The translations under genes were made by a program, and so were the position numbers. From Escherichia coli O157:H7 (GTDB lineage Bacteria; Pseudomonadota; Gammaproteobacteria; Enterobacterales; Enterobacteriaceae): a DNA stretch of 64,000 bases. A model generated the notes under the pieces. It did not search any database. It had not been told where the DNA came from and saw nothing but the letters and a program-made list of their open reading frames with translations. Shown here one piece after another: positions 45,097-45,500 of the stretch; position 1 is the stretch's first letter; each line of letters starts with the position of its first letter. The DNA lies in assembly GCF_013167455.1 (NCBI RefSeq), contig NZ_CP038328.1. The stretch is one strand, 5' to 3'.

Positions 45097-45172
45097 TGGA
45101 GCGGGAAACGAGACTCGAACTCGCGACCCCGACCTTGGCAAGGTCGTGCTCTACCAACTGAGCTATTCCCGC
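45097..45172 (-). tRNA. glyY: tRNA-Gly (anticodon GCC), copy 3 of the tandem array
   Basis: Reverse complement gives GCGGGAATAGCTCAGTTGGTAGAGCACGACCTTGCCAAGGTCGGGGTCGCGAGTTCGAGTCTCGTTTCCCGCTCCA with encoded CCA. Confidence 0.95.
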
Positions 45173-45207
45173 TTGGGTGGTCTGTGCCTTACAGCACTTT
45201 CAAATTT

Positions 45208-45283
45208 TGGAGCGGGAAACGAGACTCGAACTCGCGACCCCGACCTTGGCAAGGTCGTGCTCTACCAACTGAGCTATTCCCGC
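45208..45283 (-). tRNA. glyX: tRNA-Gly (anticodon GCC), copy 2
   Basis: Identical 76-nt tRNA sequence, 111-bp periodicity. Confidence 0.95.
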
Positions 45284-45319
45284 TTGGGTGGTCTGTGCTT
45301 TGCAGCACTTTTCAAATTT

Positions 45320-45395
45320 TGGAGCGGGAAACGAGACTCGAACTCGCGACCCCGACCTTGGCAAGGTCGTGCTCTACCAACTGAGCTATTCCCGC
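45320..45395 (-). tRNA. glyV: tRNA-Gly (anticodon GCC), copy 1
   Basis: Identical 76-nt tRNA sequence. Confidence 0.95.
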
Positions 45396-45443
45396 GTACT
45401 ACTTAATTTTGCTTTCGTAATTTTCGCATTTCTGCGTCGTTAC

Positions 45444-45500
45444 GGGAGGCGCATTATACGAGAAATCTTTCCCTCTGCAACCCCCCTAAAAATTTTTTTT
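45444..45500 (-). promoter_or_regulatory. candidate sigma70 promoter of the glyVXY operon with upstream A/T tract
   Basis: On the minus strand TTGCAG (45479-45474), 16-nt spacer, TATAAT (45457-45452), GC-rich discriminator gcgcctcc, and an upstream A9T5 run. Confidence 0.55.

Follow-up and report, generated by a model that had tools for sequence, protein, structure and literature searches.

The glyV-glyX-glyY tRNA-Gly(GCC) operon of Escherichia coli O157:H7 and the adjacent datA site

Its sequence identifies the locus analysed here as the E. coli O157:H7 glyV-glyX-glyY operon, an unremarkable, previously characterised tRNA operon directly upstream of the replication-control site datA. We place this identification, together with the mechanism of transcription, processing and read-through proposed below, at a probability of roughly 95%. 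In the 64-kb stretch of DNA under study (the window), ARAGORN detected exactly three tRNA genes, each a minus-strand tRNA-Gly with a GCC anticodon. O157:H7 genomes carry the segment 44600-45900 with 100% identity. A match to it is found in 5,425 of the 5,426 complete E. coli genomes searched, and the flanking DNA is ~98% identical in most of them. Gene order is syntenic with orn-glyV-glyX-glyY-yjeV-queG of K-12, in which glyV, glyX and glyY are annotated as b4163-b4165 between orn and yjeV/queG. The annotation of a 100%-identical O157:H7 genome agrees, and yjeV was found exactly at 44810-44863. The O157:H7 allele shares with K-12 the identical tRNAs, the 112/111-bp spacing and both flanks (orn upstream, yjeV/queG downstream), and nothing of substance differs between them. 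The fourth copy of tRNA-Gly(GCC), glyW, lies elsewhere in the genome in the glyW-cysT-leuZ operon. The gene content of glyVXY is textbook and its coupling to datA is already published.

The promoter-proximal gene, glyV, occupies 45320..45395 on the minus strand and is identical to K-12 glyV; glyX (45208..45283) and glyY (45097..45172) follow on the same strand. Each gene is 76 nt long including an encoded CCA, and the three sequences are 100% identical, which excludes chance. Each copy scores 69.1 bits against the Rfam tRNA model RF00005 (gathering score 29) and covers the full model (1-71), and ARAGORN reads the anticodon of all three as gcc, at position 34. In E. coli, the glycine identity elements are U73, G1:C72, C2:G71 and G3:C70. 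The sequence GCGGGAA...TTCCCGC-T-CCA fits these elements and the encoded 3′ CCA. A match to YrlA (Y-RNA-like) that spans two of the tRNAs was rejected as a tRNA-like artefact, its score being 40.3 bits for a gathering score of 69. Tandem Repeats Finder reports the array as 2.7 copies of a 111-bp period with 98% matches. A first-pass annotation of this DNA had recognised the three identical 76-nt genes in tandem, and the calls above bear it out. It had also given the repeat as exactly 111 bp, which is not what the alignment shows: start-to-start periods are 112 bp (glyV-glyX) and 111 bp (glyX-glyY), for an array span of 299 bp. The spacers are near-identical as it had described, differing by one indel and two substitutions, but they measure 36 nt (glyV-glyX) and 35 nt (glyX-glyY) instead of 35 nt each. 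It left the strand unstated; the genes and their promoter are both on the minus strand.

Two further RNA elements in the window score above their Rfam gathering thresholds, a guanidine-II riboswitch upstream of sugE (60343-60389, minus strand) and an RpsF leader upstream of rpsF-priB-rpsR-rplI (12634-12718, minus strand). Following the annotation of the identical O157:H7 genome, an IS609 element (an IS200/IS605-family tnpA plus the tnpB/InsQ RNA-guided endonuclease gene) interrupts a TetR-family pseudogene at ~8062-9709.

The promoter of the operon, PglyVXY, and its terminator, TglyVXY, were located first in the sequence itself and afterwards with the help of folding, conservation and published work. 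The upstream region, read on the minus strand, is AAAAACTCAAAAAAAAATTTTTAGGGGGG-TTGCAG-AGGGAAAGATTTCTCG-TATAAT-GCGCCTCC-CGTAACG. The core promoter (45445..45480) consists of a −35 hexamer TTGCAG (45480..45475), a 16-nt spacer, a perfect consensus −10 hexamer TATAAT (45458..45453) and the GC-rich discriminator GCGCCTCC (45452..45445). Its earlier description as a near-consensus sigma70 promoter is accurate for the −10 hexamer alone and not for the −35 hexamer, which matches TTGACA at only 3 of 6 positions. A consensus promoter scan of the window did not call PglyVXY because of this hexamer, the scan requiring at least 4/6 matches per hexamer. The GC-rich discriminator had been correctly assigned to a promoter belonging to the array itself. 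Further upstream, from about 45487 to about 45509 (about −43 to −65), the A/T tract AAAAACTCAAAAAAAAATTTTTA is a candidate UP element. The tract noted in the first-pass annotation is thus real, but it is parted from the −35 hexamer by GGGGGG (45486..45481, −37 to −42), and its length differs among E. coli strains.

Conservation provides strong evidence that PglyVXY is real. Scanning one genome per species gave 120 loci with tandem tRNA-Gly(GCC) junctions, and the 79 with a full-length upstream orn were scanned for the promoter. The pattern TTGCNN-16 nt-TATAAT-[G/T]CG..CCC is present upstream of the first gene in ~65 of these 79 loci, in Escherichia, Citrobacter, Enterobacter, Pantoea, Proteus, Providencia and Aeromonas. 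Such conservation, with an invariant 16-nt spacer, argues strongly for a genuine promoter. It also bears on whether the TTGCAG/TATAAT match could be fortuitous, with the tRNAs made chiefly by read-through from orn. The orn gene is on the same strand as the tRNAs, its end is only 210 nt upstream and the −35 hexamer is poor, all of which would suit such a read-through. Folding nevertheless places a hairpin with a U-run after orn, and published data contradict this explanation: deletion of PglyV-X-Y abolishes the downstream transcripts but deletion of Porn does not, and RT-qPCR showed that RNA upstream of PglyV-X-Y is much lower, orn transcription being largely terminated before the promoter (PMC10950094). 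We therefore regard orn read-through as the chief source of these tRNAs as having a negligible likelihood, and retain PglyVXY as the promoter of the array.

The layout of PglyVXY resembles that of the rRNA and tRNA promoters subject to stringent and growth-rate control, of which rrnB P1 is one. Read directly from K-12, rrnB P1 is TTGTCA-16 nt-TATAAT-GCGCCACC behind an A/T-rich tract. The two promoters share the 16-nt spacer, the perfect TATAAT, a GCGCC... discriminator, a non-consensus −35 hexamer starting with TTG and an A/T-rich upstream tract. They differ in the −35 hexamer itself (TTGCAG, not TTGTCA) and in the GGGGGG that occupies the proximal UP subsite of PglyVXY. Our literature search found no ppGpp, DksA or Fis control of PglyVXY, and the published regulator table is blank for glyVXY. 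The stringent-type character proposed by the first-pass annotation is a sound deduction from the rrnB P1 layout and its recurrence in the ~65 loci; by this analogy, PglyVXY would be under stringent control.

The published glyVXY precursor runs from 45445 (5′ end) to 45063 (3′ end; Kime et al., PMC3985628). The transcript start used in the literature (CCGTAACGACG...) defines a 50-nt 5′ leader that runs to the first base of glyV (45396..45445, minus strand). This leader folds into a small hairpin (−8.4 kcal/mol, z of −2.8). TglyVXY (45038..45074, minus strand), downstream of glyY, comprises the hairpin CCACAGCGACGCGAUGCGUUAUUGCUGG (45074..45047) and the adjoining UUUUUGUUG (45046..45038); folding and the literature mark it as a putative weak intrinsic terminator or attenuator. 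The hairpin and U-tract together fold with −14.3 kcal/mol and a z-score of only −1.9, and a consensus terminator scan of the window did not call TglyVXY. The predicted TglyV-X-Y is described as overlapping DnaA box 1 of datA and attenuating read-through, while being partly read through (Kasho et al. 2024, PMC10950094).

These elements suggest the following course of expression. Sigma-70 RNA polymerase would start ~50 nt upstream of glyV at the rrnB-P1-like promoter (TTGCAG-16-TATAAT-GCGCCTCC) and produce a ~408-nt precursor ending at the weak hairpin/U-tract terminator. RNase E would cut the A/U-rich single strands (AAAUUUGA) after each CCA. RNase P would presumably make the mature 5′ ends and remove the 50-nt leader, and exonucleases would trim the 3′ ends back to the encoded CCA. 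With three copies behind one strong promoter that is probably sensitive to growth rate and ppGpp, the operon would deliver most of the abundant tRNA-Gly(GCC), which reads GGC and GGU. Other tandem same-isoacceptor tRNA operons of E. coli include leuQPV and valVW, whose separation is reportedly RNase P-dependent. Like them, glyVXY has identical tRNAs in one transcript, short A/U-rich spacers and separation by an endonuclease. It differs from them in that RNase E has been shown in vitro to cleave the glyVXY precursor efficiently via direct entry (PMC3985628). A large part of the mature tRNA pool derives from glyVXY, which has been deleted in MG1655 (PMC9981150); Kasho et al. used a complementing plasmid with their own deletion so as to prevent lethality (PMC10950094).

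Both spacers contain a small hairpin. The glyV-glyX spacer (45284..45319) comprises AAAUUUGAAAA, the hairpin GUGCU-GCAA-AGCAC (45308..45295) and AGACCACCCAA, with a fold of −7.2 kcal/mol and a z-score of −2.2. The glyX-glyY spacer (45173..45207) carries the hairpin GUGCU-GUAA-GGCAC (45197..45184), whose closing pair is a U-G wobble. Alignment and folding give the two the same layout: the A/U-rich AAAUUUGA adjoins the CCA and is followed by a GNRA-looped 5-bp hairpin and then by ACCACCCAA, which precedes the next tRNA. Across genera of the Enterobacteriaceae, the hairpin is flanked by invariant AAAUUUGA and CACCACCCAA. Among the 45 unique Enterobacteriaceae spacers of 33-37 nt, 36 form a hairpin of 4-7 bp at −4 kcal/mol or lower, in nearly every case at one shared position, and the mean z-score against shuffled sequences is −1.8. 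The stems vary (GUGCU/AGCAC, UGGCU/AGCCA, GGCC/GGCC, GUGUC/GACAC, AUGUC/GACAU, GUAUC/GAUAC, AUGCUU/AAGCAU, UGGCG/CGCCA) and the flanks are constant. RNAalifold found no structure in a MAFFT alignment of the spacers, in which the stems are out of register; folding was done sequence by sequence instead. Because the stems covary, the hairpin is probably functional. Klebsiella, Raoultella and others have spacers of 23-24 nt without the hairpin, which makes it dispensable.

The first-pass annotation had called the array a hotspot for copy-number change by unequal recombination and had suggested comparing strains. We made this comparison on 5,426 complete E. coli genomes with three queries. The junction query (85 nt: 25 nt of tRNA, the spacer and 25 nt of tRNA) gave 10,729 junctions in 5,408 genomes, with 1-4 per genome and a median of 2. 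For a synthetic two-copy construct with flanks of 150 nt, 105 genomes reached a coverage of at least 80%. The one-copy construct was covered in 123 genomes, that is, these 105 and the 18 without a junction, although the joining of overlapping match pieces leaves the division into one- and two-copy genomes slightly uncertain. Four annotated copies were seen in at least 11 genomes among the best 30 matches. The number with four or more was bounded by junction arithmetic (N2 = 87 + N4 + 2·N5), and with N2 = 105 about 18 extra units are shared by the four- and five-copy genomes. The resulting estimate is three copies in ~97% of genomes, two in ~1.9% (~105), one in ~0.3% (~18, at least one of the junction-less genomes being not one-copy) and four or more in ~0.2-0.3% (~11-18). 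Variation is thus real but rare.

The exception among the 18 junction-less genomes is E. coli OHT76-1 (NZ_CP135244.1 / NZ_CP135245.1), whose chromosome record has no orn-glyVXY-queG and whose array is on a separate 373-kb record labelled as a plasmid. That this strain lacks the locus was rejected, the 373-kb record being a split or mislabelled chromosome. Plasmid-borne arrays were rejected on the same grounds for the other records concerned (0.6-4.9 Mb), which are mislabelled chromosomes or chromosome fragments.

The changes in copy number are exact. O157:H7 17B6-2 has four genes spaced by 111, 111 and 112 bp, O157:H7 Xuzhou21 has two genes and keeps the 36-nt spacer, and two O157-like genomes have two genes and keep the 35-nt spacer. 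TUM1226 has one gene and ATCC 25922 has two. In all of these the flanks are intact. The occurrence in O157:H7-like backgrounds of two-copy alleles with either spacer and of a four-copy allele points to independent events. Exact unit changes between intact flanks indicate that unequal recombination or slippage recurs, while the three-copy state dominates. Perfect 111/112-bp repeats are prone to mis-assembly, and the complete genomes with one, two or four copies include some older assemblies, for instance that of Xuzhou21. It is nevertheless extremely improbable that the three copies in the window are themselves an assembly artefact, a collapsed or expanded repeat hiding a different true number: three copies with 36- and 35-nt spacers recur in K-12, in the O157:H7 genomes that match at 100% and in ~97% of the 5,426 genomes, and the repeat unit is well within the length of a sequencing read. 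We therefore take the three-copy array as it stands.

Copy number was also determined in other species, in 67 complete arrays downstream of orn, a sample for which at least one junction was required and which thus excludes single-copy species. Three copies are present in 51 arrays, seven in 7, two in 6, four in 2 and five in 1. The seven-copy arrays belong to five Aeromonas species, Proteus faecis and one Enterobacter ludwigii assembly, the latter with ERIC-like inserts in two spacers. Both surveys bear on the view that the array is above all an unstable recombination hotspot whose copy number changes rapidly from strain to strain. Such flux would be consistent with the exact one-unit losses and gains, with the O157:H7-like alleles described above, and with the seven copies in Aeromonas and Proteus faecis. 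It is difficult to reconcile with a count of exactly three in ~97% of E. coli genomes and in 51 of 67 related-species arrays, and some of the variants may be assembly errors. We consider it doubtful that instability is the main feature of the array. The dominance of three copies within and beyond E. coli implies instead a low rate of change or selection for three. The hotspot claim accordingly stands for the recurrence of one-unit changes, O157:H7 included, but not for their frequency.

Directly downstream of glyY, four DnaA-box-like 9-mers and a consensus IHF site lie within 44829-45078. The 9-mer ATATCCACA (45070..45078, minus strand) lies inside the terminator stem and, given the overlap described in PMC10950094, would be datA box 1. 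A perfect DnaA box, TTATCCACA (45003..45011, minus strand), would be box 2. The IHF consensus site TAACCTATTGATA (44934..44946, minus strand), which follows the consensus TAAnnnnTTGATW used in PMC10950094, would be the datA IHF-binding site (IBS). The 9-mers TCATCCACA (44829-44837, plus strand) and TTATTCACA (44841-44849, minus strand) would be boxes 3 and 4; both are inside yjeV, adjoining the 3′ end of queG. The four predicted DnaA boxes have 0-1 mismatches and fall within 250 bp. We infer their correspondence to the published box numbers from the text of the paper rather than from its figure. Across the Enterobacteriaceae, the spacing of the boxes from the last tRNA is constant (about +20, +86 to +89, +248 and +260), and queG ends 270-276 nt downstream of it. 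The arrangement is that of the published datA, with DnaA boxes and an IHF consensus directly downstream of glyY and a terminator overlapping box 1. A terminator-like hairpin with a T-run is also present on the minus strand between the IHF site and yjeV (44885-44907). It may end the read-through transcripts, or it may act in both directions as a terminator that also serves queG.

As a DNA element, datA adjoins the tRNA array without belonging to it, and it falls beyond the region described in the first-pass annotation, which missed this adjacent DnaA-box/IHF site, the feature that makes the locus biologically notable. Transcripts that cross the datA IBS originate mainly at PglyV-X-Y (Kasho et al. 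2024, PMC10950094). Deletion of this promoter, or insertion of rrnB T upstream, abolished the pre-initiation release of IHF and delayed initiation (Kasho et al. 2024, PMC10950094). In the mechanism proposed here, some polymerases would pass TglyVXY into the adjacent datA, where, as published, read-through would help displace IHF before replication initiation.

Finally, the spacers are polymorphic in length. A 121-nt insert is found in the glyV-glyX spacer of 1,607 of the 5,426 E. coli genomes (30%), for example in E. coli FDAARGOS_1077 (3190-3346 of its locus extract). The O157:H7 allele in the window is without it (45283/45284). The insert is a hairpin that resembles ERIC/IRU elements, a likeness judged against the ERIC1R and ERIC2 primer sequences. 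Homologues are found in spacer 1 or 2 in Citrobacter, Kluyvera, Pluralibacter, Silvania, Superficieibacter, Buttiauxella and Klebsiella oxytoca, and these seven other genera show compensatory stem changes. Trabulsiella and Buttiauxella izardii have truncated remnants of the insert. Searching the literature for ERIC in combination with glyV gave no result. Array variants, whether with one, two or four copies or with the 121-nt insert, could alter PglyVXY read-through into datA, and the spacer hairpin with its flanking AAAUUUGA/CACCACCCAA may be a dedicated, undescribed processing or pausing signal. Taken jointly, these two proposals are quite unlikely to hold. If true, array variants would tune DnaA inactivation and the timing of replication initiation between strains.

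Most of an abundant glycine tRNA comes from this operon. The census puts a number on the natural stability of a perfect 111-bp tandem repeat, ~97% of the 5,426 genomes keeping three copies, and the ERIC-like spacer insert is a common polymorphism that can be tested for an effect on datA. The main interest of the locus is its position: read-through from PglyVXY regulates IHF at datA and so links tRNA synthesis to replication timing (PMC10950094).
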